NCBI GenBank assembly: GCA_964406735.1
Contig: CAYOSU010000005.1
Coordinates: 11,407-75,406, forward strand
Direction of reading: 5' to 3'
Origin: an uncultured Clostridia bacterium
GTDB lineage: Bacteria > Bacillota > Clostridia > Christensenellales > CAMQZB01
DNA: 64,000 bases
Positions within the stretch are counted from its first letter, which is position 1. Every line of letters begins with the position of its first letter. The notes under the pieces are model-generated. The model searched no databases. It had not been told where the DNA came from and worked only from the letters and a program-made list of their open reading frames with translations. A program made the translations under genes and the position numbers. Shown piece by piece: positions 34,341-56,790 of the stretch.

Positions 34341-34349
34341 TTTTTAGAA

Positions 34350-35381
<1,032 letters not shown>

Positions 35382-35396
35382 TCAAAATACATGTTC

Positions 35397-35425
35397 ATTA
35401 TAACAATATCAATACAAAAACGCAA
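35397..35425 (-). promoter_or_regulatory. sigma-A-type promoter of gap
   Basis: On the minus strand, TTGCGT (35425-35420), a 17-nt spacer, then TATAAT (35402-35397). Confidence 0.5.
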
Positions 35426-35532
35426 CCTTTTTTTGCTCCTTTTCTCTTTTTTCGTTAAGAATTTCACAAGAGCGAAAATTGCACTTTCGTGTGATAAAGT
35501 CTATTCAAACGCACTTGTTGCGTTTTGCGTGA

Positions 35533-36648
35533 TTATTTCAAATTCTCGGGATTCAAGCACTCAAGCTCGGGAATAACGAAGCGGCCGTCTTTTCTTATCA
35601 AAACGTCGTCGAAATAGATCTCTCCGCCGCCCCACTCGGGAGTCTGAATGTGTACGAGATCCCAATGTATCGCACTGTTGTTTCCGTTAGGTGCTTCGTC
35701 GTAGCATGCACCCGGCGTGAAGTGGATAGAACCTGCGATCTTTTCGTCGAACAGTATGTCGAGCATAGGTTTGTTGACGTACGGGTTAACGCCGATAGCG
35801 AATTCTCCTACGTATCTTGCGCCCTCATCGGTATTGAATACGTTCTCGATATCCGCAGTTCTTGAAGACGTAGCCTTTACTATCTTTCCGTCCTTGAATT
35901 CAAGACGGATGTCGTCGTGCCTTATTCCGTTATAAATAGACGGCGCAGAGTAGCTTATGTAGCCGTTTACAGAATCCTTTACGGGAGCGGTGTATACTTC
36001 GCCGTCGGGAATATTGCAATAGCCTGCGCAAGGAATTGCAGGAATATCTTTGATGGAGAACCTAAGGTCGGTCTTTGCGTCCAATATCCTGACTTTATCA
36101 GTTCTGTTCATAAGGTCTACGAGCGGCTGCATTGCCTTGCCCATCTTTGCATAGTCAAGACAGCATACGTCGAAGAAAAAGTCTTCAAAGCTCTCGGTAG
36201 ACATTCCGGCAGCCTGCGCAAAAGATGCGGTAGGATAACGGAGAACAACCCAACGGGTCTTTGCAACTCTTATCTCGTGATGTACCTTGTGGAAATACTC
36301 GCTGTTGAAAAGCTGCATATTCTCTGCAGGTACGTCGGAAAGGTCGAAGCTGTTCTCTCCTCCACGGATGCCGATATAGCAGTCCATATCAGCCATTCTC
36401 TCTGCGTCCCACTTAACCCAGTAGTCCATCTGCTCTTTGGTTACGCCCATGAGCATTGCACGCTTCGTCGTGGGGTCTGTGTAATTATAATACGGGTAAG
36501 CCCCTACCTTATAGCATTCCTTTATGCACTCGTTGAGAAGAGGTGCGTCGGAAAAGCTTCCCTCAATAAGTACCTTGTCTCCTTTTTTAGCACGGACGGA
36601 ATTGTTTACAAGATTTTTTGCAAGTAATTTAATTCTTTCGTCAACCAT
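35533..36648 (-). CDS. M29-family aminopeptidase (AmpS/PepS-like)
   Basis: 371 aa. LAKNLVNNSVRAKKGDKVLI, IPDGEVYTAP and EFAIGVNP are typical of peptidase M29. Confidence 0.85.
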   Translation of the reverse strand: MVDERIKLLAKNLVNNSVRAKKGDKVLIEGSFSDAPLLNECIKECYKVGAYPYYNYTDPTTKRAMLMGVTKEQMDYWVKWDAERMADMDCYIGIRGGENSFDLSDVPAENMQLFNSEYFHKVHHEIRVAKTRWVVLRYPTASFAQAAGMSTESFEDFFFDVCCLDYAKMGKAMQPLVDLMNRTDKVRILDAKTDLRFSIKDIPAIPCAGYCNIPDGEVYTAPVKDSVNGYISYSAPSIYNGIRHDDIRLEFKDGKIVKATSSRTADIENVFNTDEGARYVGEFAIGVNPYVNKPMLDILFDEKIAGSIHFTPGACYDEAPNGNNSAIHWDLVHIQTPEWGGGEIYFDDVLIRKDGRFVIPELECLNPENLK

Positions 36649-39225: not shown

Positions 39226-39323
39226 GCAAGGCTACGGTCTTGAAAAACCCAAATTATCGAACGGTTACCGTTATGCTATATCATTCGAGGCTTAATTCCA
39301 AACAAAGAAGGTGCTTAAAAACT

Positions 39324-39857
39324 ATGGAAATCGGCAGTAAAATCAAGGGCTTAAGGCTTGCGGTAGGACTTACTCAAGAAGAGCTTGCGGACAGATGCGA
39401 CTTGACGAAAGGTTACATCAGCCAGCTTGAAAACGATCTTACCTCCCCCGCTATTTCGACGCTCGAGGATCTCCTCGCTGCGCTCGGTACGGACTTAAGC
39501 GAGTTTTTCTCGTCCGAATCGGACGAAAGAGTGGTCTTCACCGAAGACGACTATTTCGTCAAGGAATACGACGACGAAAAGACTACTTGGCTGGTGCCTA
39601 ACAGTCAAAGAAACAGCATGGAGCCTATTAAATGCACTCTTTCGGGAAAGGCGAAAACGGACGTTGACAACCCGCACGAGGGCGAGGAGTTCGGCTACGT
39701 TTTGTCGGGCGAGGTTATACTTCATACCGGCGGCAAGAGATTCAGAGTGAAAAAAGGACAGTCTTTTTATTTCACTTCTTCCACCAACCATTTCCTGGAA
39801 AACCCCTCAAACGAGATCGCTGAGATAATCTGGGTCTCGTCTCCCCCTAACTTTTAA
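39324..39857 (+). CDS. XRE-family HTH regulator with a C-terminal cupin domain (PuuR-like architecture)
   Basis: HTH LTQEELADRCDLTKGYISQLEN, then a cupin segment HEGEEFGYVLSGEVILHTGGKRFRVKKGQSFYF. The ATG at 39324 is preferred over the ORF-track TTG at 39240. Confidence 0.8.
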   Translation: MEIGSKIKGLRLAVGLTQEELADRCDLTKGYISQLENDLTSPAISTLEDLLAALGTDLSEFFSSESDERVVFTEDDYFVKEYDDEKTTWLVPNSQRNSMEPIKCTLSGKAKTDVDNPHEGEEFGYVLSGEVILHTGGKRFRVKKGQSFYFTSSTNHFLENPSNEIAEIIWVSSPPNF

Positions 39858-39948
39858 TATAAAAAGATCGTATTAAACGACTTATATACCAAACTTTCAA
39901 AAGCTATCTGCTTTGGCTTACGCTAAGGCAATGGAAAGGAGTATGTTT

Positions 39949-41454
39949 ATGGAAAACAAAATTATCGAGCTTAAAAACATCACTAAACGCTACGGAGACT
40001 TTACTGCGGTGGACAACCTCAACCTTTACATAAGAAAGGGTGAGTTCGTAACCCTTTTAGGTCCGTCAGGTTGCGGCAAGACGACTACTCTTCGCATGAT
40101 CGCAGGCTTCGAGATGCCTGACGAGGGCGAAGTGCTTTTTAACGGAAAGGACATTTCCGAAATACCGCCGTATAAGCGCAATATCAATACAGTTTTCCAA
40201 CGATACGCTCTTTTCCCCCATTATAACGTATTCAACAACATCGCATTCGGTCTTAAATTGAAGACCTTTGAAAAAGATTACGTCGACAAAAACGGCGTTA
40301 CCAAGACCAAAAAGGTACACTACTCAAAGGCGGAAATCGCCAAAAAGGTCAAAAACGCTCTTAAAATAGTAGGACTTTCAGACTACGAGGACAGAGACGT
40401 CTCCTCTCTTTCGGGCGGTCAGCAGCAAAGAGTCGCTATCGCAAGAGCTATCGTTAACGAGCCCGAGATCCTTCTTCTCGACGAGCCTTTGGGCGCACTC
40501 GACCTTAAGATGAGAAAGGACATGCAGCTCGAGCTTAAAGCGATGCACAAAAAGCTCGGCATCACGTTTATTTACGTTACGCACGACCAAGAGGAAGCGC
40601 TCACGATGAGCGACACCATAGTCGTTATGAAGGACGGAGAGATCCAGCAGATCGGTACGCCGATAGACATCTACAACGAGCCTAAAAACGCTTTCGTTGC
40701 TGACTTTATCGGAGAGTCCAACATCGTTGACGGCGTTATGAAAAAGGACTTCCTCGTAGAGTTCGACAACGTAACGGCAAAATGTACAGACCACGGCTTC
40801 GGCGAAAACGAGAGAGTCGACGTCGTTATACGTCCCGAGGACTTTTATATCACCGATCCTACCGAAAAGGGTCTTATTTCGGGAACTATCGTTTCCTCCG
40901 TATTCAAGGGTATGGACTACGAAATGGAGGTTAAGTCCGATTCGGGCTGTGAATTCTTGGTAAAAGATACTAAGTTCCGCCCCGTAGGAAGCGAGGTATC
41001 GCTCTTTATCGACCCCGATGACATCCATATCATGAAGAAGATGCACGTCGAAAACGACTTGGAGGGTGTCATCTCCGATTTCAACGAAATAGAGCTTTCG
41101 GGCGGCTATTTTGCTTGCAACACCAACGCACTCACTTCTTATTCCTCTCTCGACGAGGACGGAAAGCCTCTTGACGAGAACGGCGAAATAATCGACCTTA
41201 AAGGCAGAAAGGTACGTGTAGTTATTCCTTTCGACAAGGTCGAGCTTACGGACGACGAGGCGGACGGCGTTATCGGCGCAGACGTCATTACCATTCTCTT
41301 CAAGGGTAACCATTATCAGTACGGCGTTAAGACGGACGCTAACGATTTCTTCTATTGCGACAGCCTCGACCAGTGGGACGACGGCGACAGAGTAGGCATT
41401 AAGGTAGATCCTAAGGACATCACCTTGGAGCTTTTGAGCGAGGTGGAAGAATAA
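39949..41454 (+). CDS. potA: spermidine/putrescine-type ABC transporter ATP-binding protein with an extended C-terminus
   Basis: [23 protein letters not shown] and [14 protein letters not shown] at 39949 with an AAGGAG Shine-Dalgarno. About 500 aa, that is, extra sequence after the first TOBE-like region. Confidence 0.85.
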
Positions 41455-42236
41455 TGAGAGTTTTTTCCAGAAAGACGTTGAGTATTCCTTACGGAGTATT
41501 CCTTGCGGTCTTCATCATAATTCCGCTTATACTTATCGTATTTTACGCTTTTACCGATAGAGAAGGTAACGTAACTTTTTCTAACTTCGTTTCATTCTTC
41601 TCTAACGGCGAAGCGATAAACGCTTTCCTCTATTCCGTTTATGTAGCAGTTATAACTACCGTTTGCTGTCTCGTTTTAGCCTTCCCGGTTGCATTGATAC
41701 TTTCTAACCCAAAGCTCAACAAGTCTAAGGTTACGGTCGTTCTCTTTATTCTCCCTATGTGGATGAACTTCCTTTTGAGAACGCTTGCTATAAGAGAAAT
41801 GTTCTTCTTTGCTGACATAAGGCTTGGTGAGTTTACCACAATACTCGGTATGGTATATAACTTCTTGCCGTTTATGATACTTCCCATCTACAACAGCCTC
41901 ACAAAGATAGACAAATCTTATTCCGAGGCAGCGGAAGACCTCGGCGCAACGCCTTTACACGTTCTTGTTAAGGTTACCATACCTCTTTCCGTTCCCGGAA
42001 TAATGTCGGGCGTTTTGATGGTATTTATGCCCTCTATCTCGACGTTCGTTATCTCCGACCTTTTGTCTGTCGGACGTATACAGCTTCTCGGAAACCTCAT
42101 CAACCTCAACTTTACGACGGGCAACAACTGGAACTACGGTTCGGCTATATCGCTGATACTTCTTATTCTTATCGGTATCACGATGTTCATAACCGACCAA
42201 AAGGAAACTGAAAAAGCAGGAGGCGGATTATGGTAA
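41454..42236 (+). CDS. potB: polyamine ABC transporter permease
   Basis: A 260-aa protein with 6 TM segments and the EAA loop SYSEAAEDLGATPLHVLVKVTIP. Confidence 0.85.
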   Translation: MRVFSRKTLSIPYGVFLAVFIIIPLILIVFYAFTDREGNVTFSNFVSFFSNGEAINAFLYSVYVAVITTVCCLVLAFPVALILSNPKLNKSKVTVVLFILPMWMNFLLRTLAIREMFFFADIRLGEFTTILGMVYNFLPFMILPIYNSLTKIDKSYSEAAEDLGATPLHVLVKVTIPLSVPGIMSGVLMVFMPSISTFVISDLLSVGRIQLLGNLINLNFTTGNNWNYGSAISLILLILIGITMFITDQKETEKAGGGLW

Positions 42237-43021
42237 AGAAAACTTTTGCTTGGATATATATCGGAATAGTTCTTGCCTTTATATACCTCCCCATCGCATT
42301 CATCATCGTATATTCCTTTACTACGAGCAAGGTAATCGGAAGCTGGAGCGGCTTTACGTTCGAGCTATATAAAGAGGTCTTCGTAGGAGCAGAAAGCGAA
42401 AAGATACTTACCGCACTCAAAAATACAGTTGTTTTAGGACTTTCGTCCTCACTTATCGCAACGATACTCGGAACGGTAGGCGCAATAGGAATATTTAACC
42501 TTAAACACAAAACGCAAAAGTTATTTTCCACGATAAACCAGATACCTATCCTTAACGCCGACATCGTTACGGGTGTATCCCTCCTTTTGCTATTTGTTTT
42601 CCTCAACATCGAAAGAGGCTTTTTGACAGTTCTTATCTGCCACGTTTCATTCTCTGCACCATACGTTCTTTTGAACGTTATGCCAAGGCTTGAAAGTATG
42701 GACAATTCTACTTACGAAGCAGCTCTCGATCTCGGCGCAACGCCTATGCAGGCACTTTTCAAAGTAATTATCCCCGACATATTCCCCGGAATGGTATCGG
42801 GTTTCATGCTCGCATTCACGCTTTCCATCGACGATTTCGTCATCACCGTATTCAACAACGGTTCTTTCCAGACGCTTTCGACGTTTATTTATGCAGACGC
42901 CAAAAAAGGCGGTCTTACGCCGTCGCTTCGTGCGCTATCGACCCTCATATTCCTGGTCGTTTTGACGCTCTTACTCGTAGTCAACCTGCGTACTGCTAAG
43001 GCAAAGGAGGGTAAAAAATGA
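42230..43021 (+). CDS. potC: polyamine ABC transporter permease
   Basis: A 263-aa protein with the EAA loop TYEAALDLGATPMQALFKVIIP and an AGGAGG Shine-Dalgarno. Confidence 0.85.
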   Translation: MVKKTFAWIYIGIVLAFIYLPIAFIIVYSFTTSKVIGSWSGFTFELYKEVFVGAESEKILTALKNTVVLGLSSSLIATILGTVGAIGIFNLKHKTQKLFSTINQIPILNADIVTGVSLLLLFVFLNIERGFLTVLICHVSFSAPYVLLNVMPRLESMDNSTYEAALDLGATPMQALFKVIIPDIFPGMVSGFMLAFTLSIDDFVITVFNNGSFQTLSTFIYADAKKGGLTPSLRALSTLIFLVVLTLLLVVNLRTAKAKEGKK

Positions 43022-44385
43022 AAAGACTTACTAAAATTTTAGCTATCATCCTCTGCCTCGTACTAGTTCTTTCCGCCTTTTCAGGCTGCAAGGACGAGAG
43101 ATCTACCGTTCTTCGCATATATAACTGGGAAGATTATATCGACCCCGAGGTCTTGGACGATTTCGTTGAGTATTATTACGACAAATACGGTATTTGGTTG
43201 ACTATATCTTACGAGACATTCGACACCAACGAGACGATGTATACTAAGATCGAAAAGGCGCACGAGGATTACGACCTCTGCGCACCGAGTGAGTATATGA
43301 TCGAGAAGATGAAAAACGAAGGACTTATTCAGCAGATGGATGAGGAGATCGTCGGAGAGGTATATAAACAGTACGTACCTAAGTATATCAGAGATCAGTT
43401 TGCGATCGTTACGGGAAACACCGACACGGAGCTTTACGCAGTAGGCTATATGTGGGGAACGCTCGGAATCATATATAACAAGGACAAAGTTCCTCTCGAA
43501 GAGCTTGAAGAAAAAGGCTGGGGCATCCTCTGGGATGAGAAATACTCGGGCAAGATATTTATGAAGGACTCTATAAGAGATTCTTACGCAGTCGGAAACC
43601 TTTACGTTTTCAGAGAACAGTATTTCGCTTTGAGAGATCAGTACGACAACGGAGAATTGACTCTTTCGGAGTATCAGGCAAATATACAAGAGCTTTTCAA
43701 CAGGACGGACGACGAGACGGTCGCACTCATCGAAGAGGCACTCATCAACCAAAAAGAGACCGTTGACGCAATGTACGACGTCGATAACGACAAGAACGCT
43801 ATGGTAAACGGTACGGCATACCTCGACGTTGCTTGGTCGGGCGATGCGAGATGGGCTATCGTCGAGTCAAACGAGACCGACAACGGCGTAAATCTCGGCT
43901 ACTACATCCCCCGTGAAGGCACGAACGTTTGGTTTGACGGTTGGATCATCCCGAAGTACGCTAAGAACGTGCAGGCGGCTAACGAATTTGCGGCGTTCCT
44001 GATGCTCCCCGAAAATTCCATACGCATTATGGACTATATCGGATATCCCTCATGCGTCGGCGGCGACGAGGTTTATGAATACGCAAAAGAGCAGGCGTTC
44101 GAGACGGACACAGAGGATCTTGACGTTTCGTACTTCTTTGAAGGCAAAGATCCTGCCGTCGTTACGGATACTATGTATCCTGACCTTAGCCAAATCACCT
44201 CTGCGGCAGTTATGCAGGACTTTGGCGAGGCGAACTCCTCTATCAACGAGATGTGGGCAAGAGTTAAGGGCAATACCCTTACGCCGATGATAATCATCGT
44301 TGACTCCATCGTTGCGGCAGGACTTTTGTTTATGGTCGCAAGAAAGATCTTCAGGTTCGCAAAAAAGAAGTCAAGGGCCAAATAA
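43018..44385 (+). CDS. potD: polyamine-type substrate-binding lipoprotein with an additional C-terminal TM anchor
   Basis: Lipobox LSAFSGC and the PotD-like start LRIYNWEDYIDPEV. The C-terminus PMIIIVDSIVAAGLLFMVARKIFRFAKKKSRAK is a hydrophobic helix with a basic tail. Confidence 0.8.
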   Translation: MKRLTKILAIILCLVLVLSAFSGCKDERSTVLRIYNWEDYIDPEVLDDFVEYYYDKYGIWLTISYETFDTNETMYTKIEKAHEDYDLCAPSEYMIEKMKNEGLIQQMDEEIVGEVYKQYVPKYIRDQFAIVTGNTDTELYAVGYMWGTLGIIYNKDKVPLEELEEKGWGILWDEKYSGKIFMKDSIRDSYAVGNLYVFREQYFALRDQYDNGELTLSEYQANIQELFNRTDDETVALIEEALINQKETVDAMYDVDNDKNAMVNGTAYLDVAWSGDARWAIVESNETDNGVNLGYYIPREGTNVWFDGWIIPKYAKNVQAANEFAAFLMLPENSIRIMDYIGYPSCVGGDEVYEYAKEQAFETDTEDLDVSYFFEGKDPAVVTDTMYPDLSQITSAAVMQDFGEANSSINEMWARVKGNTLTPMIIIVDSIVAAGLLFMVARKIFRFAKKKSRAK

Positions 44386-44400
44386 GCAACAAAAATTTAA

Positions 44401-44430
44401 GGCACTCTCGCTTGAGAGTGCCCTTTTATT
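44401..44430 (+). terminator. intrinsic terminator of the pot operon
   Basis: GGCACTCTC-gctt-GAGAGTGCC followed by CTTTTATTTG. Confidence 0.8.
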
Positions 44431-44707: not shown

Positions 44708-46144
44708 TTATTCTTTGTCGTCGGTAATGCCGAGGATATCATTCATTACTTTCTCTGTTTCGAGAAGGTAATTGCCTTTTCTTATCCTTTTCCTGATAGA
44801 GGTGTATTTGGCGTTTGCATCTCTGTTTTTCGTTATGGTGCGCATTACGTCAATAGGCGGATATAAGCCAAACTCTTCTAAATAGCGATCGACGACAAGT
44901 ATACCGTCGCAGTATCCCCTGAAAAGCATTGCAAGCTTGTCCTGAGTAAACATATGTCGTGTCGCATCCATAAGACGGTTCAAATTCATTGTGAAAAGCA
45001 ACGTTATCGAGCCGCCAGTACTTGTATTGCGCGCAAGAATAAACAGGTCTTGGAAAAGGCTTAATGCTTCAAGCTCGCGGTCATTGCTCGTTTCGGCGTA
45101 TTTGACTAATAGCTTCATGACGTCTTCGAGCGCATCGATAACGAATATTATATCCTTGCCGTCAGCGTAATCTCTCTTGACGTTAGCAACGACGTACCTG
45201 AATGTTGAAAACTGAAAGTCATCACTCTTGTCCACTACCCTATACTCAGTTTCACTCTCGGGAACGTTGTTTTTATAGCCCTTTAGGTCGAGCGTATATA
45301 CGACGGCAATTTTTTCAAGAGCACGCCTTATATTGTACAATAAAGGGGACATCTTCGCTTCAGTGTTCGTCGTGATTATCATCCTTTCACCAAAACGCAA
45401 AGGCGTTAGTTCACTTAACACAGCACCTAAAGCCTTATCGTCCAAAAGCGCGGCAAAATCTATCTTTTTCTTTGGCTTTATTATCCCTTTGCTGATATAC
45501 GGGTCGCAATACTTCGTTCCGAACGGCACACCGTTTACCGTCATTACCTCGTCTATTATCTCGTACGGACCTTTGATCTTGACGTGAACACGCAATTTAT
45601 CTCCGACTTGCAGCTTTTTGCTTTGATAGAAGTCCTCGGTTATTATCGGGTCGCCGCTTTCAGGTCCGTATTTCCCGTGTTGCAGGAAATACCTATTATA
45701 AACGCCGTTGACTATTCCCTCGGTCTCGTAGTCCGTTCTTTCGGTGATCGTAGCTTGATACATCTCTAAGTCGAAAGCTACATCGTCTTGCGTCGAAGAA
45801 GACGAAGCATCATTGTCGCCGTGGAAATACGATATGCCGTTTTCGTCGTTATAGCGACGGGAAACATCTTCAAGAAGAGTGATAATATCTTCATACGGCG
45901 CATTATCATAAAGCGCACGGTCTTCCGCAAAACCGTCGCACTTAAAAGCCATAAGGCGGTCTTTTAAGGCTGCCATGCTATCTTTAATTGATGGCTTTGC
46001 ACCTATTATCTCGCATAATGCGATAAGCTGTTCTTTATACAGAAGATCAAGCACTTCCGTACATACGTTATAGCCTCGAAGAATTGTTAAAAGCTTTGAT
46101 TGTAAAGGGGTCAAGTCTTTGTTTCTATCGTTAGCTTGCGACAA
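44708..46144 (-). CDS. Rho-like protein (Rho_N-like, OB/CSD-like and RecA-like core) with degenerate Walker A and catalytic motifs
   Basis: By-eye collinear similarity to E. coli Rho: FGERMIITTNTEAKMSPLLYNI vs GQRGLIVAPPKAGKTMLLQNI, GGSITLLFT vs GGSLTIIAT, LYPPIDVMRT vs VFPAIDYNRS, and LQVGDKLRVHVK vs [12 protein letters not shown]. TTG start at 46144 with a GGAGGAG Shine-Dalgarno. Confidence 0.6.
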   Translation of the reverse strand: MSQANDRNKDLTPLQSKLLTILRGYNVCTEVLDLLYKEQLIALCEIIGAKPSIKDSMAALKDRLMAFKCDGFAEDRALYDNAPYEDIITLLEDVSRRYNDENGISYFHGDNDASSSSTQDDVAFDLEMYQATITERTDYETEGIVNGVYNRYFLQHGKYGPESGDPIITEDFYQSKKLQVGDKLRVHVKIKGPYEIIDEVMTVNGVPFGTKYCDPYISKGIIKPKKKIDFAALLDDKALGAVLSELTPLRFGERMIITTNTEAKMSPLLYNIRRALEKIAVVYTLDLKGYKNNVPESETEYRVVDKSDDFQFSTFRYVVANVKRDYADGKDIIFVIDALEDVMKLLVKYAETSNDRELEALSLFQDLFILARNTSTGGSITLLFTMNLNRLMDATRHMFTQDKLAMLFRGYCDGILVVDRYLEEFGLYPPIDVMRTITKNRDANAKYTSIRKRIRKGNYLLETEKVMNDILGITDDKE

Positions 46145-46518
46145 TTTCTTTCTCCTCCGAATATCATATCATAAGTAACATCAATGCGAAGTGTGCCTTC
46201 GTCCTCTTTAAGCGCATAGGAAAAAGTCTCCACATCGCCGACAAGTCTTCCTTGCGGAAGCCTTATTATGCAAGAAGTCTTTTCGTTTGGCTTTATTAAT
46301 ATAGCCATTTTAGCGTCGCCGCTACGCTTTATTTTGAGCTGGTCGTGCGATGCGGTAAGTTCATAATCGGACTTTTGTCCGTCGTCCTCGTGAACGTAAG
46401 CCAGCTTATGTATTCCATCAATGCACTCCCAATATCCGTCGTACGAATAGGGCGCTTCGCTTTCGTTTGTAATCGTTATCTTGCAATTTTTCATGAGCGT
46501 ATTGTAACACAAAAGCAT
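46111..46518 (-). CDS. DUF1934 (YwiB-like) beta-barrel protein
   Basis: Pattern ...LKIKRSGDAKMAILIKPNEKTSCIIRLPQGRLVGDVETFSYALKEDEGTLRIDVTYDM... fits my recollection of DUF1934. The start is ambiguous (46518 or 46494). The 3' end overlaps the Rho-like gene by 34 nt. Confidence 0.55.
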   Translation of the reverse strand: MLLCYNTLMKNCKITITNESEAPYSYDGYWECIDGIHKLAYVHEDDGQKSDYELTASHDQLKIKRSGDAKMAILIKPNEKTSCIIRLPQGRLVGDVETFSYALKEDEGTLRIDVTYDMIFGGERNCRKLTIETKT

Positions 46519-46712
46519 TCACTATGCAAGATAAATTGCAAAGTAAATGCTTTTTCTTCGTAATAAAAGGTCTATTATGCCTATTTTATGGTGATTTTAC
46601 GCTAAAAACGGTGATTATGCTTTTTGTCTTATCGATACGACCAACTGCGATTTATCCTTAAACGACTTGCGCTTTTTTGATATACTTAATTGCAGTTGGG
46701 AATAAGCTTTTC

Positions 46713-48185
46713 TCACAAGATTATGCAGACGACTCCGCCTCTTCCCTCGTTTACTATCCTCGAAACGGTCTTTCTCATCTTGGTCTTTACTTCCTGAGGC
46801 ATTGCCGCAAGCTTGTTGTTCAAGCCGTCGTTTACCAACGTATTGAGGGACTTGCCGAACAGCTTCGTTTCCCAAATGCCGTCAGGGTTATTCTCAAATT
46901 CCGAAAGCAGGCTCTTTACAAGCTCCTCGCCCTGCTGTTCGGTTGCGACTATAGGGTTTATCTCGGTATCGACGTCAACTCGCATTATGTGCATAGAGGG
47001 AGCTTGCGCTTTAAGCGATACACCGTACTGACCATTCTGAGAGGTAACTTTCGGTTCGAACAGAGTCATCTCGTCTACGGTCGGCGTTACGACGCCGTAG
47101 CCAGATACCTTGACTTCTTCAAGCGCTTCCCTTATCTTATCGTAGCCGTTCTTTGCGGAAATAAGCTCGGAAAGCAGGGTTATCAGCTCGAAATCATCCT
47201 TTATTTCGACGCCGGTAGAGTCGCTTATTACTTTATAGAAAAGCCCGTCTTTCGCCGTGATTTCAGCCGTTATGACACCGCTCCCCATGTTGGCGTTAGG
47301 CTTTATCGAATCGACGTATTCGGAGGACGAGAAAATATCTTCAAGAAATGCAGAAGAGTCCATTTTGTCGAATATATCGACATTGTCTTTCAGGCGTGTC
47401 AAAATATCCGCTATTATCTCGTGATCGGGAGGCAGTGCACTCATCCACTTGGGAAGACCAATCTCAACTTGCTCAACGGGAAATTCGGTCAAAAGAGTAG
47501 CAAGTATCTCCTCTACGCCGTGCTTGTTGAGCTTTGCGAGATTTTTTGGTATTACCGAAACGCCGTATTTTTCCGAAAGCTCCGTTGCCAAGCCTTTTAC
47601 GCTCTCTGCATCGGGAGTTTTTGAGTTGAGCACTATGACGAAGGGCTTTTTGCACGATCTTAAGTCGTTCACGATACGCTCTTCGCTTTCAACGTAGTTT
47701 TCTCGAGGAAGGTCGGAAATACTTCCGTCGCACGTTACCATTACGCCGACGACGGAATGCTCTTCTATGACTTTTTTTGTTCCTAAAGTGGCGGCTTCTT
47801 CAAAGGGCATCTCCTTATCGCTCCAAGGAGTCTTTATGTACCGCTTCTTTTCGCCGTCCTCTTTGCCTATCGCTCCGTCAACGAGGTAGCCTACGCAATC
47901 GACTAAGCGCACGTTGAGTTCGACGTTATTGTCAAGGTTGAGCGTTATCGCAGTGCCGGGGACGAATTTCGGCTCGGTGGTCGTTATCGTCTTGCCGCTA
48001 CCGCTTTGCGGAAGCTCGTCTTTTATTCGTTCACGCTCGCTTTTGCTTTGTACGTTCGGAATGACTGTCGATTCCATAAACCTGCTGATAAACGTCGATT
48101 TCCCCGTGCGAGTGGGGCCAACCACCCCTATATAGATATCTCCGCCGAAGCGGCTCGCTATATCGGCATAGAAGCTATTTCCCAT
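46713..48185 (-). CDS. spoIVA: stage IV sporulation protein A (spore coat morphogenetic ATPase)
   Basis: DIYIGVVGPTRTGKSTFI Walker A, the 490-aa length and the conserved C-terminus ...RIVNEGRGGVVCIIL. Confidence 0.95.
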   Translation of the reverse strand: MGNSFYADIASRFGGDIYIGVVGPTRTGKSTFISRFMESTVIPNVQSKSERERIKDELPQSGSGKTITTTEPKFVPGTAITLNLDNNVELNVRLVDCVGYLVDGAIGKEDGEKKRYIKTPWSDKEMPFEEAATLGTKKVIEEHSVVGVMVTCDGSISDLPRENYVESEERIVNDLRSCKKPFVIVLNSKTPDAESVKGLATELSEKYGVSVIPKNLAKLNKHGVEEILATLLTEFPVEQVEIGLPKWMSALPPDHEIIADILTRLKDNVDIFDKMDSSAFLEDIFSSSEYVDSIKPNANMGSGVITAEITAKDGLFYKVISDSTGVEIKDDFELITLLSELISAKNGYDKIREALEEVKVSGYGVVTPTVDEMTLFEPKVTSQNGQYGVSLKAQAPSMHIMRVDVDTEINPIVATEQQGEELVKSLLSEFENNPDGIWETKLFGKSLNTLVNDGLNNKLAAMPQEVKTKMRKTVSRIVNEGRGGVVCIIL

Positions 48186-50026: not shown

Positions 50027-51337
50027 TTAGTCGTCGTTCTTATTAGAGAATACGAGTTTTATCGGAGTTCCCGAGAAGTCAAAGGCTTTGCGGAGTTGAT
50101 TTTCGAGGTAACGCCTATAAGAGAAATGCACTAATTCGCTATCGTTTACAGAGAAGACAATAACGGGCGGATTGGTTGCCGTTGACGTAACGAAGTATAT
50201 CTTGAGGCGTCTGCCTTTATACGAAGGGGGTTCGTTGACGGCGAAAGCATCCTGAATAATATCGTTGAGAACGCCTGTTGAGGGACGGAATGATGCGTGA
50301 GAGTAGACTTCGTTTACGAGCGTCATAATTTTTTCTACTCTCTGACCGGTCTTTGCCGAGATATATACGGGAACGAAGTAGTCCATAAACGCCAAGGACG
50401 TATGGAGATTGTCGTTATATTTATTGACCGTGTTGGTGTCCTTTTCTATCGTATCCCACTTATTCATGACTACGACTGAGGGCTTGCCCATTCTGTGAAC
50501 GTAGCCTGCGATCCTGACGTCCTGTTCGGATATCTCCTCGGAAGCGTCCATGACGATGAGTACGACGTCGGCTTTCCTTATCGCCGCCATAGCACGGAGT
50601 ACGGAGTAGTGCTCTACGTCGTCGTCGATACTGCGCTTTCTTCTTATGCCTGCGGTGTCGATTATCGAATACTTCTGTCCGTTGTACTCAAACTTGGTGT
50701 CTATCGCATCACGGGTCGTTCCCGAAACGTTGGAAACTATGCTCCTGTCGTAGCCGAGCAGTTTGTTCGTAAGGCTGGATTTACCGACGTTGGGCTTGCC
50801 GACGATGGCTATCTTTATTCTGTCGGGCTCTTCCTCTACCTCGACGGTCTCTAAGTACGAAACAGCCTCGTCGAGTACGTCGCCCGTACCCTGTCCCTGC
50901 TCTGCGGTCATCGCTATCGGGTCGCCAAGACCCAAGGAGTAAAACTCGAATACCTTGGACTCGTCGTAATTGTCAATCTTGTTTACGGCAAGGACGATCG
51001 GCTTTTTGCTCTTTCTGAGAAGAGCTGCTACTTCGTAATCGTCGTGAAGAAGCCCTTGCTTGCCGTCTACCATGAATATGATGACGTCGGCAAGGTCTAC
51101 TGCCGTCATCGCCTGTTCTTTTATGTGCACGAACATCTCGTCGGTGGACTTTACTTCAAGTCCGCCCGTGTCAGCCAAGGTGAACTTCTTGCCACCCCAC
51201 TCTGCGTCGCAATACACCCTATCACGCGTAACTCCCGGGCGGTCGTCTACTATAGACAGTCTTTCGCCCGCTACGCGGTTAAAAAAGGTGGATTTTCCTA
51301 CGTTTGGTCTTCCTACTATAGCTATCGTCGGTTTCAT
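50027..51337 (-). CDS. der: ribosome biogenesis GTPase Der (EngA)
   Basis: Two G domains (GRPNVGKST and GKPNVGKSS; DTGG and DTAG; NKID and NKWD) plus a KH-like C-terminus. Confidence 0.95.
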   Translation of the reverse strand: MKPTIAIVGRPNVGKSTFFNRVAGERLSIVDDRPGVTRDRVYCDAEWGGKKFTLADTGGLEVKSTDEMFVHIKEQAMTAVDLADVIIFMVDGKQGLLHDDYEVAALLRKSKKPIVLAVNKIDNYDESKVFEFYSLGLGDPIAMTAEQGQGTGDVLDEAVSYLETVEVEEEPDRIKIAIVGKPNVGKSSLTNKLLGYDRSIVSNVSGTTRDAIDTKFEYNGQKYSIIDTAGIRRKRSIDDDVEHYSVLRAMAAIRKADVVLIVMDASEEISEQDVRIAGYVHRMGKPSVVVMNKWDTIEKDTNTVNKYNDNLHTSLAFMDYFVPVYISAKTGQRVEKIMTLVNEVYSHASFRPSTGVLNDIIQDAFAVNEPPSYKGRRLKIYFVTSTATNPPVIVFSVNDSELVHFSYRRYLENQLRKAFDFSGTPIKLVFSNKNDD

Positions 51338-51367
51338 ATAATAACCTCTAAATCGTCTTATTTTTGC

Positions 51368-52630
51368 CTATAAAAGCTTGTACAGGTCGCCGCCGCTTCT
51401 TGGCGATACCACTACCTCGCAGCCGACCTTTTCGGCAAACTCGCTTAGCGTCGTTCCGTCCAAAAAGACGTCGCCGAATTCTTTTAATATATTGGACGGC
51501 AATATTATCCGCTTGTACTTTTTATCGTCCATCTGCGCTATTATATCGGTCGGTGTAAGCAGTCCTGCGACCGTTACCGAACGACCGAAAAAGTCGTTTT
51601 TGACGCACAATATCTCGTGCGGACAATTTACGCTCTCGATAAGTTTTTTGAGCGTCGGATAAAAGGATACGCCCGTTACGAGCAACGTTTTTTTCTTCGA
51701 GAACGCTTTTTTCGGCGTTATCTCTTCGTTGAACTCCTCTATGAACTTGCGAACTAAGCCTACGCCGTTTTCGATCTGGTCGTATGCGCCGTAAAAATCA
51801 GCGGTCGGAACTTCTCTTCCCGCCAAGCAATAAAACTCGTCGGAAAGGTATACGAAGGGCTCGCCGTGCTTTGAAAAAAAGTACTTCGCGCAAGGCTCGA
51901 CCTCGTCTATCACCTTTGACGCACTTTCTTTATCGAAAAGCTTGAGGTCATACAACCCCTCACGGTGTCTCGTCGTGCCGACGGGAACTATCGCCAAGGT
52001 CTTTACCATCGGGTACAAAGAATACAGGTCTGCGATCGTCTTGTGAAGGATATCTCCGTCGTTGAGACCTTTGCAAAGGACCACCTGCGTGTGGACCTCT
52101 ATGCCGCCTGCGGTGAGCTTTTTCAGCTGAGACATAAGTTTCCCTGCGAAGCGATTATGCAACAGCTCGCAACGTACTTTCTCGTCGGTGGCGTGAACGG
52201 AAACGTATAACGGAGACAAATGAAGCGCAATTATGCGGTCTATCTCCGCATCGGAGTCGTTTGTGAGCGTTACGTAGCTCCCCGATATAAAGGACAGCCT
52301 GTAATCGTCGTCCTTTACGTACAGCGTGTCTCGAAGCCCTTTTGGCATCTGATCTACGAAGCAGAATACGCACTTATTCTGGCAGGTGCGTATCTTCAGT
52401 TCTTCCTCGAACGTCAAGCCTATATCCTCGTCAAGCTCACGCTCGACATCTAACGTGTAGGTCTCGCCGTTTGAAAGTACATCTAAAGTAAACTCAGTTT
52501 CTCCCTCTAAGTACAGATAATCGAGTATGTCCTCTACGTCTTTGCCGTTTATCGTCGAAAGTACATCGCCTGCTTCTATGCCAAGCTCCTCGGCTATTGA
52601 GTTTTTTTCAACGCTTTTTACCGTGAGCAT
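51368..52630 (-). CDS. DUF512-domain protein with an N-terminal PDZ-like domain (radical-SAM-related family)
   Basis: PDZ-like IAEELGIEAGDVLSTINGK and a Cys cluster CQNKCVFCF. It takes the conserved position upstream of der. Confidence 0.75.
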   Translation of the reverse strand: MLTVKSVEKNSIAEELGIEAGDVLSTINGKDVEDILDYLYLEGETEFTLDVLSNGETYTLDVERELDEDIGLTFEEELKIRTCQNKCVFCFVDQMPKGLRDTLYVKDDDYRLSFISGSYVTLTNDSDAEIDRIIALHLSPLYVSVHATDEKVRCELLHNRFAGKLMSQLKKLTAGGIEVHTQVVLCKGLNDGDILHKTIADLYSLYPMVKTLAIVPVGTTRHREGLYDLKLFDKESASKVIDEVEPCAKYFFSKHGEPFVYLSDEFYCLAGREVPTADFYGAYDQIENGVGLVRKFIEEFNEEITPKKAFSKKKTLLVTGVSFYPTLKKLIESVNCPHEILCVKNDFFGRSVTVAGLLTPTDIIAQMDDKKYKRIILPSNILKEFGDVFLDGTTLSEFAEKVGCEVVVSPRSGGDLYKLL

Positions 52631-53089
52631 TTATTTTTTCTCTTTGAGCATCTTTTCAAGCTCTTTCATGAACGAAGATATGTCCTTGAACTCGCGGTAA
52701 ACGGACGCAAAACGCACGTACGCAACCTCGTTGAGGTTTTTGAGCTCGTCCATTACGAGCTCGCCGATCTGCTCGGACGTTATTTCCGATTCGAGATTGT
52801 TGGATATCTTTTTCTTGATGTGGCTGACTACTCCGTCGATGTCGGACATCGATACGGGGCACTTCTCGCAGGACTTAACTATACCCATTTTGAGCTTCGC
52901 CTGATCGAACTGTTCACGTCTGCCGTCTCGCTTTATGACCAAAACAGGCGCAGTCTCTACGCTCTCGTACGTCGTGAAGCGTCTGCCGCAGGAAATGCAC
53001 TCGCGGCGACGGCGTATACTCGTTCCGTCCTCTGACGGGCGAGAGTCTATTACCTTTGTGTCATCATATCCGCAAAAACAACATTTCAT
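52631..53089 (-). CDS. nrdR: transcriptional repressor NrdR
   Basis: Zinc ribbon MKCCFCG...CISCGRRFTT followed by an ATP-cone; 152 aa. Confidence 0.95.
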   Translation of the reverse strand: MKCCFCGYDDTKVIDSRPSEDGTSIRRRRECISCGRRFTTYESVETAPVLVIKRDGRREQFDQAKLKMGIVKSCEKCPVSMSDIDGVVSHIKKKISNNLESEITSEQIGELVMDELKNLNEVAYVRFASVYREFKDISSFMKELEKMLKEKK

Positions 53090-53304
53090 AGTATTTCTCC
53101 TTTAAGAAAAAGAACTCGTTACTATGTAATTTTACAATAAATATGACTAAAACGCAACCCATTTTGTAGTATTTGGCTCGTTTCCTACAATATTTTGTGG
53201 TAGGACTACGGTTTGTGGGATATTTTTAGTAGATTTAATATACGAACAAAGCGTTTTGCATAAATAAGTCAAAAAGTTACGATAATAATACGAAGAGGTA
53301 GGTT

Positions 53305-53919
53305 ATGATAATTTTGAAAATTGCGGCGGTTGCGTATTTTATCGCAATAAACGCTTACGGCGCGATGCTTTTATTTATGCAACGCAAGGAGCGTGAAGCG
53401 GTAAGTTGCGATAGTACAAGCGAAAACGGTGCACGTAATCAAAAATGCCGAAATGACGTCGAAAACGAGAATATCGGCGACGTTGCAAACGGCTTTGATA
53501 AATCACAAGAACGTGATGAAAAATGCGATGATAAGGCTGTGAGTGCCTTAGATATGCCGCATAAAAGCGATAGCGGTGAAGCGACGAACGAAAATTGCGA
53601 AAGTGTGATATATCTTTCGGGAAAGTGCGTTAAAAGCGGCAAATACGACGATACTGCAACGAAAAACGCAGTCGCAAATAAAGACTCGAAAGCAAAAAAA
53701 GAAAGCAAAAATGCGGCGTTTTCATCCGTCAAAGAGGTATCGGATATGCAGCTTTTTCTTACAGCGTTAGCAGGCGGTTCGCTTGGACTGTTCATAACGC
53801 TTATCGTGCTGAGATACCGACTCAAAAACATGCCGCTCGTCGTAGGGCTTCCCGTACTTTCCGCCGTATATCTTGCAGTCGTAGTTATATTCGCTTTCGG
53901 CATAAGCCTTGTCCAATAA
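53305..53919 (+). CDS. DUF1294-like membrane protein with a long hydrophilic insertion
   Basis: The N-terminal TM (IAAVAYFIAINAYGAMLLFMQRKE) and C-terminal TMs (LFLTALAGGSLGLFITLIVLRYRLKN...) fit the DUF1294 ends. They are separated by about 110 aa rich in Asp, Glu, Lys, Asn and Cys. Confidence 0.5.
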   Translation: MIILKIAAVAYFIAINAYGAMLLFMQRKEREAVSCDSTSENGARNQKCRNDVENENIGDVANGFDKSQERDEKCDDKAVSALDMPHKSDSGEATNENCESVIYLSGKCVKSGKYDDTATKNAVANKDSKAKKESKNAAFSSVKEVSDMQLFLTALAGGSLGLFITLIVLRYRLKNMPLVVGLPVLSAVYLAVVVIFAFGISLVQ

Positions 53920-53926
53920 AACGTAC

Positions 53927-53958
53927 AGAACGAGCGAAAATTTCGCCCGTTCTCTTTT
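53927..53958. terminator. terminator between the convergent DUF1294 and ylmC genes
   Basis: AGAACGAGCGAAA / TTTCGCCCGTTCT stem with one mismatch, followed by CTTTTATTT. Confidence 0.6.
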
Positions 53959-54250
53959 ATTTCGGCCTGTCGCCGTCGTCCTCTATTTTCCCCTGCAAAG
54001 CCTCGGTCTTGACCTCTTGACAGACCTCGACGAGTATTACGTCGCTACCGATGCGCTTTATGTTTTTCCATGGGATATATAAGTCGTCGGAGGATTTGAA
54101 AAGCGAAAAGCCTTTGTTCCCGGGAACGACTATACCTCGGATTCCGCCTATTACGGTATCGATGATGAGATCGACCGTTTTCCCAAGCTTTTTGCCGTCG
54201 GATACGTTGACGACGTCCTTTGATCTGAGATCTGAATATTCTACGTTCAT
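53957..54250 (-). CDS. YlmC/YmxH-family PRC-barrel sporulation protein
   Basis: 97 aa. SDLRSKDVVNVSDGKKLGKTVDLIID...GIVVPG is the typical YlmC/YmxH pattern. Confidence 0.8.
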   Translation of the reverse strand: MNVEYSDLRSKDVVNVSDGKKLGKTVDLIIDTVIGGIRGIVVPGNKGFSLFKSSDDLYIPWKNIKRIGSDVILVEVCQEVKTEALQGKIEDDGDRPK

Positions 54251-54299
54251 GACATACCTTTTTTATCAATGATATGCCGTTTGCGCTTTTTGTGTTACT

Positions 54300-55076
54300 T
54301 TATGAGTTTATGTCCTCTCTTATTCGCTTTAAGGCGCATTTTTCAAGGCGTGAGACCTGCGCTTGCGAAATACCTACCGCACGAGATACTTCCATTTGCG
54401 TTTTTCCGACAAAGTAGCGAAGGTACAGTATCTCTCTTTCTTTTTCTTCGAGAGCATTCAAGCAATCTGAAAGAGCGACCTCGTTCGTCCACTTTTCCGT
54501 CGATACGGTCTTATCGGAAAGCTGGTCCATCAACAGCAGTTCATCTCCGTTTTTGTTGTATACGGGATCGAAAATGGAGACGGGATCTGCTATTGCGTCG
54601 AGCGCATAGGCTATCTTTTCTACGGGAAGCTCACAGAGCGTGGCAATATCCTCAACTGTGCATTCCTTTGAGTTGACCCTTTCAAAGCGTTCCTTTGCGC
54701 ACAACGCCTTATACGCTACGTCTCGAATAGACCTCGTTACCTTGACGGAGGTTGAATCACGAAGAAAACGCCTTATCTCACCCGTTATCATAGGAACTGC
54801 GTAGGTAGAAAAGCGAACGTTGAGCGTTACGTCGAAGTTGTCTATTGCCTTTATTAAGCCGACGCACCCAACCTGAAAGAGGTCGTCAACGCTTAAATTC
54901 GCCTTATTAAAGCGCTGTATGACACTGAGTACAAGTCTCATATTGCCGACGATAAAAGCATCTCTTGCGCCCTTTTCACCCTTTTTTAGCCTTATCATAA
55001 GCTCGTCCGTCTCCCTCGCCGATAATTTCGGAAGACTTGACGTATCTAATCCGCATATCTCTACTCTCGCTCTCAA
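54300..55076 (-). CDS. sigG: sporulation sigma factor SigG
   Basis: VEICGLDTSSLPKL, LVLSVIQRFN, DDLFQVGCVGLIKAIDNFD and ISQAQVSRLEK closely parallel B. subtilis SigG. The TTG at 55076 (GAGGG Shine-Dalgarno) is preferred; the ORF-track TTG at 55106 is possible. Confidence 0.9.
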   Translation of the reverse strand: MRARVEICGLDTSSLPKLSARETDELMIRLKKGEKGARDAFIVGNMRLVLSVIQRFNKANLSVDDLFQVGCVGLIKAIDNFDVTLNVRFSTYAVPMITGEIRRFLRDSTSVKVTRSIRDVAYKALCAKERFERVNSKECTVEDIATLCELPVEKIAYALDAIADPVSIFDPVYNKNGDELLLMDQLSDKTVSTEKWTNEVALSDCLNALEEKEREILYLRYFVGKTQMEVSRAVGISQAQVSRLEKCALKRIREDINS

Positions 55077-55158
55077 TATCCTACCCTCGTTTGTATTTTG
55101 CGCCAAAACGCCTTAATATTGTGCCAAAACGAGGGCGTAATTATACTTAGACCGCTTT

Positions 55159-55863
55159 CTATGCGAGCTTATCGAGTTCCTTTTTTAACTTGAAAAGTAT
55201 CTTCTTTTCAAGGCGTGAAATATAGCTTTGAGATATTCCCAAGGTATCTGCGACCTCTTTTTGGGTCATTTCCTTTATTCCGAAAAGCCCGAAGCGCATC
55301 TTCATGATATACTTTTCCTTTTGCGACAGCTTTTCATAGGCATCGTACAATAGCTTTGTTTCCGTCTGCGCTTCTATATTATCGTACACTTCCTCGGGAG
55401 AAGTGCCTAAAACGTCGGACAACAGCAGTTCGTTGCCCTCGCTATCCGTGTTCAGCGGTTCTTCAAGCGACAGCTCGGCTTTTTTCCTTACGGCTTTTCT
55501 CAGGTGCATAAGTATCTCGTTCTCTATGCACCTCGACGCATAAGTTGCGAGCTTTATGTTTTTATCGGGGTCGAATGAATTTACTGCCTTTATTAACCCT
55601 ATGCAACCGACCGATACGAGATCTTCGGTATCGCAACCCGTATTTTCAAACTTTTTTGCTATATACACGACAAGCCTTAAATTGTGTTCTATGAGAACGG
55701 ATTTATATTTTTCATCGCCCTTTTTTATCATTTCAAGCGCCGCACTCTCCTCTTCCTTTGAAAGTGGAGTCGGCAGTGCGCCGTTGCCGCATATGTAATA
55801 AAGTGCGTTTTTCCCTAAAAGCCGTTTTATTATAAGTCGTATCTTTGAAAAAAATCTATTCAT
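55159..55863 (-). CDS. sigE: sporulation sigma factor SigE (pro-sigma-E)
   Basis: YYICGNGALPTPLSKEEE pro-sequence junction, ERNLRLVVYIAKKFENTG and ISQSYISRLEKKI. The ATG at 55863 with AAGGAGAC removes the apparent overlap with spoIIGA. Confidence 0.9.
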   Translation of the reverse strand: MNRFFSKIRLIIKRLLGKNALYYICGNGALPTPLSKEEESAALEMIKKGDEKYKSVLIEHNLRLVVYIAKKFENTGCDTEDLVSVGCIGLIKAVNSFDPDKNIKLATYASRCIENEILMHLRKAVRKKAELSLEEPLNTDSEGNELLLSDVLGTSPEEVYDNIEAQTETKLLYDAYEKLSQKEKYIMKMRFGLFGIKEMTQKEVADTLGISQSYISRLEKKILFKLKKELDKLA

Positions 55864-55877
55864 GTAAGTCTCCTTTA

Positions 55878-56690: not shown

Positions 56691-56736
56691 ACTTAGATTA
56701 TAGAAAAAAGCCCACTGTTTTGCGTGAGCTTTATGT

Positions 56737-56775
56737 CGAAAAGAAAAAGTCCTCTCGCAAAAAGCGAAAGGACTT
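56737..56775 (-). terminator. intrinsic terminator after ftsZ
   Basis: On the minus strand, AAAGTCCTTTCGC...GCGAGAGGACTTT is followed by TTCTTTTC. Confidence 0.55.
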
Positions 56776-56790
56776 TTGAAAACTTTCTAA

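Follow-up and report, generated by a model that had tools for sequence, protein, structure and literature searches.

A catalytically degenerate Rho homolog encoded in overlap with a DUF1934 gene in an uncultured Clostridia bacterium

A Rho homolog with degenerate catalytic motifs

The 64-kb window analyzed here (contig CAYOSU010000005.1 of assembly GCA_964406735.1) comes from an uncultured Clostridia bacterium and carries on its minus strand a gene for a 478-aa protein that is a Rho homolog from the OB domain to the C-terminus, far beyond chance, and in which the residues of ATP binding and hydrolysis are replaced. The TTG-initiated open reading frame (ORF) was found where a preliminary description of the sequence had placed it. 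It overlaps the 3′ end of an upstream gene of the DUF1934/YwiB family, and spoIVA lies further upstream on the same strand, again as that description stated; at its other end the Rho-like gene faces the convergent operon of an HTH (helix-turn-helix)-cupin regulator and a potABCD-like ABC transporter (Table 1). The Rho-like gene and locus of the window are referred to as WIN, and the related loci compared with it as L001 to L017. WIN and the proteins P0002, P0003, P0004, and P0005 make up the Rho-like family, which has intact ORFs in five locus lineages (L001 to L005).

Searches with the single 478-aa sequence retrieved Rho as the NCBIfam match PRK09376 (residues 120 to 453, E = 1.2e-6) and as the best sequence match in the PDB (8hsj). 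A phmmer search of 1.84 billion cluster representatives identified only P0002 (87%), P0003 (36%), P0004 (34%), and P0005 (27%) as same-family matches, followed by Rho and Rho-like proteins with E values around 1e-6. The profile of the five members matched canonical Rho in a database of 5.8 billion proteins (E = 2e-13). Within the PDB it recovered 11 Rho chains (E = 1.4e-16 to 4e-8) ahead of a type III secretion system (T3SS) ATPase, which came next at 6e-4. Alignment of the family to 19 canonical Rho sequences with hhalign (probability 99.9%, E = 6e-33) extended over 330 columns, from the OB domain through the C-terminal helices. An AlphaFold2 (AF2) model had a mean confidence (pLDDT) of 33 when computed on the single sequence; the model used instead, based on a 39-sequence multiple-sequence alignment (MSA), reached 86.9, and the top 50 Foldseek matches of this model in the PDB were Rho throughout (best E = 5.6e-19). 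Profile comparison and the Foldseek check thus gave significant support to the Rho relationship that the preliminary description had drawn by eye. WIN does not reach the curated cutoffs of TIGR00767 (16.1 of 509 bits), PRK09376 (27.6 of 315 bits), Pfam Rho_RNA_bind (15.3 of 27 bits), or Pfam ATP-synt_ab (17.3 of 29.5 bits). Its score for the NF041509 model of paralog_Rho2 was 21.2 bits against a cutoff of 628, with the long N-terminal domain present and the catalytic residues lost.

Catalytic positions were read from alignments anchored on the E. coli Rho sequence, which is identical to PDB 1pv4_A, and the same register was obtained from phmmer against the PDB, MAFFT L-INS-i, hhalign, and the HMMER profile. 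Within the Walker A P-loop (E. coli residues 178 to 185), WIN carries E for K181, K for G183, and M for K184. The equivalent segment is different in each family member, and thus no alternative nucleotide site is conserved there; the pattern [AG]xxxxGK[ST] occurs nowhere in any of the five proteins. A search for a P-loop elsewhere in the protein found none, the GKT of P0004 lying in a nonconserved, non-P-loop context. The catalytic glutamate and the arginine valve of the DERPEE motif (E211 and R212), both present in 17 of 17 canonical sequences, fall in a gap in WIN, P0002, and P0003 and are K/T and Y/R in P0004 and P0005. R269 is D in WIN and D or E across the family, and the arginine finger R366, again invariant in the 17 canonical sequences, is replaced by K, K, D, K, and K. 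By comparison, the structural motifs GQR, DVxFVID, ARN..GGS, and YPPID are retained, as is Ser or Thr at the T185 position in four of the five members, and Pfam ATP-synt_ab matches all five, always below its cutoff. The replacements that the preliminary description reported for Walker A, the DERPEE region, and the arginine finger hold in the anchored alignment, and its own caveat, that a proper alignment might restore the P-loop and the catalytic glutamate, was addressed by running one: both are still replaced, so the by-eye register holds. It had mistaken KGTGN (residues 336 to 340) for the R-loop; the latter is DTGSK (322 to 326), which aligns to DATRH and is likewise not conserved.

Outside the core, Pfam Rho_RNA_bind matches three of the five members (best E = 0.0024). 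At the primary RNA site, F64 and D78 are kept, the F62 position is aromatic in three of five members, and Y110 is kept in three of five. At the secondary site the Q-loop (278 to 290) is shortened, with K283 to T286 gapped in three members, and the R-loop position K326 is occupied by H, R, G, a gap, and T. The N-termini of the family aligned to those of Rho relatives with a probability of 52% (hhalign, P = 1.4e-4), residues 27 to 75 pairing in register with residues 3 to 49 of E. coli Rho, and AF2 placed helices at residues 29 to 32, 37 to 46, and 57 to 70. No Pfam Rho_N match appeared at E values up to 10. The Rho_N/SAP-like helix pair proposed earlier is thereby weakly supported by the in-register alignment but not by Pfam. 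Between this region and the OB fold lies a helix followed by an acidic PFDF motif (invariant L91, N99, I104, S117, D120, F124, and D125; pLDDT below 50 at residues 110 to 132), a segment that was not found in the N-terminal regions of canonical Rho. The most conserved stretch of the family is a C-terminal-helix signature, RKxIRxGN[YF]L.ETE (invariant R451, K452, I454, R455, G457, E462, and T463), which served as the pattern in a GTDB genome scan. Altogether, about 50 residues are invariant among members only 25% identical, including positions in the N-terminal domain, the PFDF linker, and the C-terminal signature.

The gene is under purifying selection. WIN and its relative at 95% average nucleotide identity, L002, the only pair unsaturated for omega, differ by a synonymous rate (dS) of 0.395 and a nonsynonymous rate (dN) of 0.066 (omega of 0.167, lowest in the OB domain at 0.084); omega between L003 and L004 was about 0.18. 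ORFs free of stops and frameshifts are preserved in five lineages (25 to 87% identity), also at 25 to 36% identity, where flanking synonymous sites are saturated (dS of 1.5 to 2.8). The preliminary description had named strain-specific pseudogene decay as an outcome that would overturn its proposal, and a pseudogene was ruled out by the intact ORFs together with an omega (0.17) below 1. On these sequence grounds, the loss of catalytic residues combined with purifying selection classes the protein as a pseudoenzyme. Relative to L003, WIN retains 34 to 35% protein identity in the Rho-like gene, 55% in DUF1934, 82% in SpoIVA, and 87 to 89% in PotD. The Rho-like gene forms a local divergence peak in an 8.6-kb alignment that is otherwise 95 to 99% identical. 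We also observed that between WIN and L002 the neighboring pot and DUF1934 genes have a dS (0.15 to 0.19) only about half that of the Rho-like gene, in which divergence peaks at positions 45400 to 45600 (81% nucleotide identity); possible causes are a lower constraint on codons, recombination, or a mutation bias of the region.

The DUF1934 gene, the promoter, and other features of the window

The upstream ORF matches Pfam DUF1934 (PF09148) with 44 bits against a gathering cutoff of 22.5 and belongs to the same family as B. subtilis YwiB (PDB 1R0U, E = 7e-9). Homologs begin at the second methionine, and its start is therefore probably the M9 ATG at 46494 rather than 46518. DUF1934 accompanies each Rho-like family member for which the upstream region is available. 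The two genes overlap by 34 nt in WIN, L001, and L002 and by 37 nt in L003 and, as an ORF fragment, in L004; in L005 they are separated by a gap of 42 nt. The Shine-Dalgarno sequence before the Rho-like TTG is conserved in L001 to L003, and GGAAGGGG stands at that site in L004. As described earlier, this GGAGGAG is inside the DUF1934 ORF, but the 34-nt overlap does not contain it and begins just downstream of it. Translational coupling of the Rho-like gene to DUF1934, also proposed at that time, is borne out by the overlap and the Shine-Dalgarno sequence, both kept in relatives.

Association with DUF1934 is not confined to the family. L009 to L011 show a 4-nt (ATGA) overlap between DUF1934 and a Rho-like gene; in P0009, which lies beside nrdD/nrdG and has this 4-nt overlap, GKT is intact and E211 is changed to Q. 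In P0007 (E211 changed to R), DUF1934 is two genes upstream, with an MBL-fold gene in between. The two fully canonical Rho loci sampled, a small sample, are without adjacent DUF1934, and ywiB of B. subtilis is not known to be operonic with rho. Literature searches returned nothing relevant on a coupling of DUF1934/YwiB to Rho-like genes; one paper names YwiB a putative RNA binding protein, solely on the basis of context (PMC3814617).

A sigma-A-type promoter is present directly upstream of all DUF1934/Rho-like pairs, with an extended −10 element in four of five. The extended −10 is seen in L005 and L011 as in WIN and L003, and L012 has a plain −35/−10 arrangement. The WIN promoter matches the consensus at 8 of 12 positions, too few to pass the consensus scan, and its end lies 6 nt upstream of the M9 ATG. 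The same geometry in the 55%-identical L003 copy suggests a leaderless DUF1934 mRNA. The alternative ORF start at 46518 falls in the promoter spacer, and the candidate leaderless region spans 46492 to 46529 in the window and about 1460 to 1500 in L003. In L003, L005, and L012, hairpins with T-runs lie between the pair and the gene upstream of it.

The preliminary description considered a sporulation-linked role conceivable. The window does come from a spore former, as marked by spoIVA and spoIIGA-sigE-sigG, and in B. subtilis the sporulation program includes developmental control of Rho (PMC11599450). However, the link is unsupported because the pair has its own sigma-A-type promoter, and adjacency to spoIVA is limited to the closest relatives checked (L001 and L003), the others being beside sleB-ypeB or nrdD. 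No conserved sporulation-sigma promoter was found upstream of DUF1934. A partial sigma-G-like element (GCGTA, 18 nt, CATAATA) in WIN and L002 is not conserved in L003 or L005 and was not used as evidence. Separately, positions 50027 to 59136 of the minus strand hold ftsA, ftsZ, spoIIGA, sigE-like and sigG-like genes, nrdR, a DUF512 radical-SAM gene, and der, which confirms a chromosome of spore-forming Clostridia.

Table 1. Features of the Rho-like locus (positions within the 64-kb window)
Feature	Residues	Position	Strand	Basis or remark
Rho-like gene (478 aa, TTG start)		44708..46144	−	ORF, Rho homology, intact orthologous ORFs in L001 to L005
Helix-extended-helix resembling Rho_N (L..L..eQL..L...IG......L...I..FK)	27-75	45920..46066	−	hhalign, AF2
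Family-specific helix and acidic/aromatic motif S..DD.PFDF, low-confidence linker	84-127	45764..45895	−	Family alignment
OB fold homologous to the Rho RNA-binding domain	139-205	45530..45730	−	hhalign columns
RecA-type core, catalytically degenerate	237-440	44825..45436	−	hhalign and motif table
Walker A P-loop APPKAGKT replaced by TNTEAKMS	259-266	45347..45370	−	Alignments
D337, retained Walker B aspartate (E. coli D265)	337	45134..45136	−	Invariant in 39/39 aligned sequences
K439, replacing the arginine finger R366 of E. coli	439	44828..44830	−	Alignment
C-terminal-helix signature RKRIRKGNYLLETEK	451-465	44750..44794	−	Family alignment
DUF1934/YwiB-like gene		46111..46494 (longest ORF to 46518)	−	Pfam DUF1934, PDB 1R0U
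Overlap of DUF1934 3′ end and Rho-like 5′ end, 34 nt		46111..46144	−	ORF coordinates
Shine-Dalgarno GGAGGAG		46152..46158	−	7 nt before TTG; within DUF1934 coding sequence (FGGE codons)
Sigma-A-type promoter (TTGCAT, 17 nt with TGn, TACAAT)		46501..46529	−	Read from sequence
spoIVA, upstream neighbor (context only)		46713..48185	−	TIGR02836, E = 9.5e-184
Bidirectional hairpin terminator where potD and the Rho-like gene converge		44399..44424	Both	Stems of 11 bp and 9 bp, T-runs on either strand
Synteny anchor: HTH-cupin regulator and potABCD-like ABC operon, transcribed toward the Rho-like gene		39240..44385	+	Pfam

An Rfam search gave no match at the Rho-like locus. Elsewhere in the window, two full-length rpoD/sigA-type genes (regions 1.1 to 4; 29213 to 30289 and 30353 to 31414, minus strand), mutually 68% identical, are arranged in tandem directly behind dnaG (31404 to 33203) and a dgt-like HD gene. 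A T-box leader (9030 to 9267, plus strand, 109.5 bits) precedes an ORF at 9325 to 10065, and a tRNA-Arg(ACG) gene is located at 11961 to 12037 on the minus strand. Finally, long ORFs overlap on opposite strands at 34332 to 35576 (plus) and 34350 to 35357 (minus); the plus-strand product of 414 aa is without Pfam match.

Origin and possible role of the Rho-like gene

In L013 and L014, a canonical Rho (P0013) is convergent with the HTH-cupin/potABCD operon, in the position and orientation of the Rho-like gene of WIN. P0013 has GKT, DERPEE, and R366 intact, and one member of its cluster is named Rho by NCBI; the operon of L014 is 55% (HTH-cupin), 54% (PotA), 48% (PotB), 45% (PotC), and 38% (PotD) identical to that of the window. 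This matching position indicates that the Rho-like gene descends from the resident rho locus and is not an unrelated insertion, nor the extra paralog that the preliminary description implicitly assumed. Similar neighborhoods recur around sleB-ypeB, which lies upstream of both the pseudo-Rho P0005 and the canonical Rho P0011: in L005 the gene of the most divergent member of the family comes after sleB-ypeB-DUF1934, and in L015 a canonical Rho is encoded a few genes downstream of sleB-ypeB, directly behind an MBL-fold gene. The gene order in L012 is DUF1934-MBL-rho. As a separate observation, the 99.7% identical strain L001 carries upstream of spoIVA (positions 1 to 2238, compared with the window from 48266 onward) a split EcoRI-like methylase and a GmrSD/HNH gene, a strain-specific restriction/defense islet absent from the window.

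The reading that we favor, at slightly better than even odds (a probability of about 0.55), is that the Rho-like gene is a degenerate descendant of the resident chromosomal rho, a natural pseudoenzyme with a binding role exerted together with DUF1934, in a lineage giving up the Rho motor. The protein would neither bind nor hydrolyze ATP in the manner of Rho and, lacking the catalytic residues, is therefore expected neither to translocate along RNA nor to terminate transcription as a motor. Selection would preserve the fold for a role in structure or binding, its conserved elements being the OB domain, the family-specific N-terminal domain, which includes the acidic PFDF motif, and the RKxIRxG signature at the C-terminus. 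This role would most likely be exerted with the co-translated and also fast-evolving DUF1934 protein, and the pair may act as an ATP-independent factor that binds RNA or the transcription complex. The lineage would be abandoning motor-driven Rho termination, a step that 30% of Bacillota have taken, one relative being already without the gene.

In that intermediate relative (L016, PotD 66% identical), ispE-DUF1934 is convergent with potD with only 163 bp between them (L016 positions 4319 to 4886); no Rho-like ORF or remnant occurs between DUF1934 and potD, a clean deletion of the Rho-like gene. L017 (PotD 59%) has neither DUF1934 nor the Rho-like gene beside pot. Related Clostridia thus show the rho locus in canonical, dead, and deleted states, which fits the absence of Rho from 30.4% of Bacillota (PMC11347177). 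The Rho-like dN of 0.62 to 0.67, against 0.09 to 0.12 for spoIVA and potD, amounts to a 5- to 7-fold acceleration. Loss in a relative and acceleration support the favored reading, as do the Rho homology, the motif loss, the purifying selection, the continuity of the locus, and the native composition. Several observations weigh against it. First, the family is very rare: 1.8 billion representatives contained just five of its clusters at the 50% identity level. A GTDB scan of 185,579 species found a single family locus, identical to L003; JGI metagenome scans with the family profile and with SpoIVA found nothing, a word-indexed protein search yielded near-identical copies only, and the family-profile search of 5.8 billion proteins added canonical Rho only. 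Acceleration, rarity, and the L016 deletion also fit a gene of marginal value. Second, RNA binding by the protein is uncertain because R66 (now Q or K) and Y80 (now I, L, or V) of the primary site are lost. The RNA-binding scaffold of the preliminary description is likewise uncertain: the OB domain is the most constrained and keeps F64 and D78, but it lacks R66 and Y80, and the Q-loop and R-loop are not conserved. Third, the AF2 model is not independent evidence of the fold because its MSA consists mostly of Rho relatives. Fourth, we infer the interaction of the Rho-like and DUF1934 proteins from operon structure and parallel acceleration alone. Lastly, a canonical rho elsewhere in the genome, if present, would make the gene a paralogous or accessory subunit.

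The first alternative, which we regard as improbable but the best of the rivals, is a slowly decaying relic: Rho became dispensable and its activity was lost, and the gene is on its way to disappearing under residual constraint, for example through avoidance of toxic misfolding or through expression of the operon, without a new function. Loss of all catalytic motifs is what a relic predicts, as are the dN 5 to 7 times that of the flanking genes and the local divergence hot spot, with a dS of 0.395 against 0.15 to 0.19 in the neighbors. Deletion in L016, absence beside pot in L017, the great rarity of the family, and the frequent loss of Rho in Bacillota (PMC11347177) point the same way. Decay is, however, difficult to reconcile with an omega of 0.17, well under 1, in the one pair that is not saturated, with about 50 invariant residues among 25%-identical members, some of them outside the Rho core, and with five lineages without stops or frameshifts despite synonymous saturation, in which start context and overlap are conserved.

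Somewhat less probable still is that a canonical Rho is encoded elsewhere in the genome and that the protein is its noncatalytic accessory subunit or its antagonist. It would tune termination, possibly in stationary phase or sporulation, by entering mixed rings, as the noncatalytic alpha and B subunits of F1 and V1 ATPases do, or by titrating Rho partners. The RecA-core fold and the ring-building motifs (GQR, DVxFVID, GGS, and YPPID) are kept, species that carry two rho genes have been suggested to form heterohexamers (PMC11347177), and the organism is a spore former, Rho levels being developmentally controlled in B. subtilis sporulation (PMC11599450). Yet the gene occupies the position of canonical rho in a relative, which suggests replacement and not addition, and both the arginine finger, which forms the interface, and the P-loop are themselves lost. 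Neither a canonical rho nor any other Rho-like ORF was found within the 64-kb window, and the promoter is of the housekeeping type, with no conserved sporulation-sigma promoter found.

A protein still active as NTPase or translocase through noncanonical residues, or a wrong alignment register, is very improbable: the invariant Walker B aspartate and the Ser/Thr at the T185 position in four of five members would suit it, but four independent alignments agree on the register, no GK[ST] in P-loop context exists in the family, and the equivalent segment is not conserved. A non-Rho origin, either as a divergent FliI/T3SS- or F1-type relative or as a horizontally acquired or mobile gene, can be practically dismissed: the FliI/SctN matches (E = 1e-5 to 0.04; 12 to 25 bits against cutoffs of 380 to 715) cover only the C-terminal 70 to 130 residues, far weaker than the Rho matches, which take in the OB domain within their 330 columns and are better by at least 10 orders of magnitude by profile, and acquisition is ruled out by native composition (43.1% GC in the gene, 44.1% in the window), conserved chromosomal synteny, and the lack of any match of the gene in PADLOC (defense) and PHROGs (phage) searches.

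Relation to known Rho proteins and significance

With canonical Rho (E. coli P0AG30) the protein shares a collinear arrangement of a tentative helix-extended-helix-like N-terminus, OB fold, RecA-type core, and C-terminal helices, the motifs GQR, Walker B DVxxxxD, ARN..GGS, and [FY]P[AP]ID, and the neighborhood of rho in a related Clostridia genome. It differs by the absence of the Walker A Gly/Lys, E211, R212, R269, R366, and K326, by the replaced R66 and Y80 and the short Q-loop, by its extra conserved N-terminal helix and acidic PFDF motif, and by evolving several-fold faster than its neighbors, Rho being normally highly conserved. In a 2024 survey of 2,730 genomes, high conservation of the ATPase domain is reported for every functional Rho, and a catalytically dead form is not mentioned (PMC11347177). 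Literature searches on ATPase-dead Rho returned nothing relevant, in agreement with the preliminary description, whose author knew of no described pseudo-Rho of this kind. The incomplete Rho proteins of "Group B" (NF041509 paralog_Rho2; D'Heygere 2013), in the terms in which PMC11347177 cites them, are also atypical and depart from the three-domain E. coli type. These short-form paralogs have lost the N-terminal domain, but their catalytic residues and their bicyclomycin pocket are intact (PMC11347177); WIN has every domain but not the catalytic residues.

Impairment of catalytic residues extends beyond the family. K184, E211, or R366 is replaced in 14 of the 32 nonfamily matches of the exhaustive phmmer search (P0006 to P0037; loci L007 and L009 to L012), which suggests that impaired Rho-like proteins are a broader, undescribed phenomenon with the WIN family at its extreme. 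Such proteins (P0006, P0007, P0009/10/25/27/28, P0019, P0023, and P0037) come from metagenome-assembled genomes and metagenomes of uncultured Clostridia; the subgroup P0009, P0010, P0025, P0027, and P0028 has GKT intact with E211 changed to Q, and NCBI names P0007 and P0009 "hypothetical protein." They score 260 to 324 bits against the hidden Markov model of canonical Rho, compared to 43 to 107 bits for the WIN family, and most keep the GKT P-loop and match Rho_RNA_bind or ATP-synt_ab, so that the WIN family is the most degenerate end. Within the same superfamily (Pfam ATP-synt_ab), F1-ATPase alpha and V1-ATPase B are catalytically dead ring subunits under selection. F1 alpha retains its P-loop, binds nucleotide, and pairs with a catalytic paralog, whereas the P-loop of WIN is destroyed and no catalytic partner is known.

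A bolder proposal, which we offer tentatively and with less confidence than the reading favored above, is that DUF1934/YwiB is an unrecognized partner of Clostridia Rho-family proteins and that here the pair may have replaced motor-driven Rho termination by an ATP-independent regulator binding RNA or RNA polymerase. The protein would then be the first natural pseudoenzyme Rho, at one end of an undescribed series of impaired Rho-like proteins in uncultured Clostridia. Should the gene merely be a decaying relic, it would document an intermediate stage of Rho loss. Rho is absent from 30.4% of Bacillota, genomes without detectable domains being classed as Rho-less (PMC11347177); if our reading is true, some of these may retain cryptic Rho derivatives. 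It would also provide a natural experiment on the ATP-independent value of Rho surfaces and nominate DUF1934/YwiB, a widespread Firmicute protein, as a Rho-associated factor. The common view of Rho is that of an ATP-driven motor with universal conservation, and these findings indicate that it can apparently persist as a nonmotor protein.

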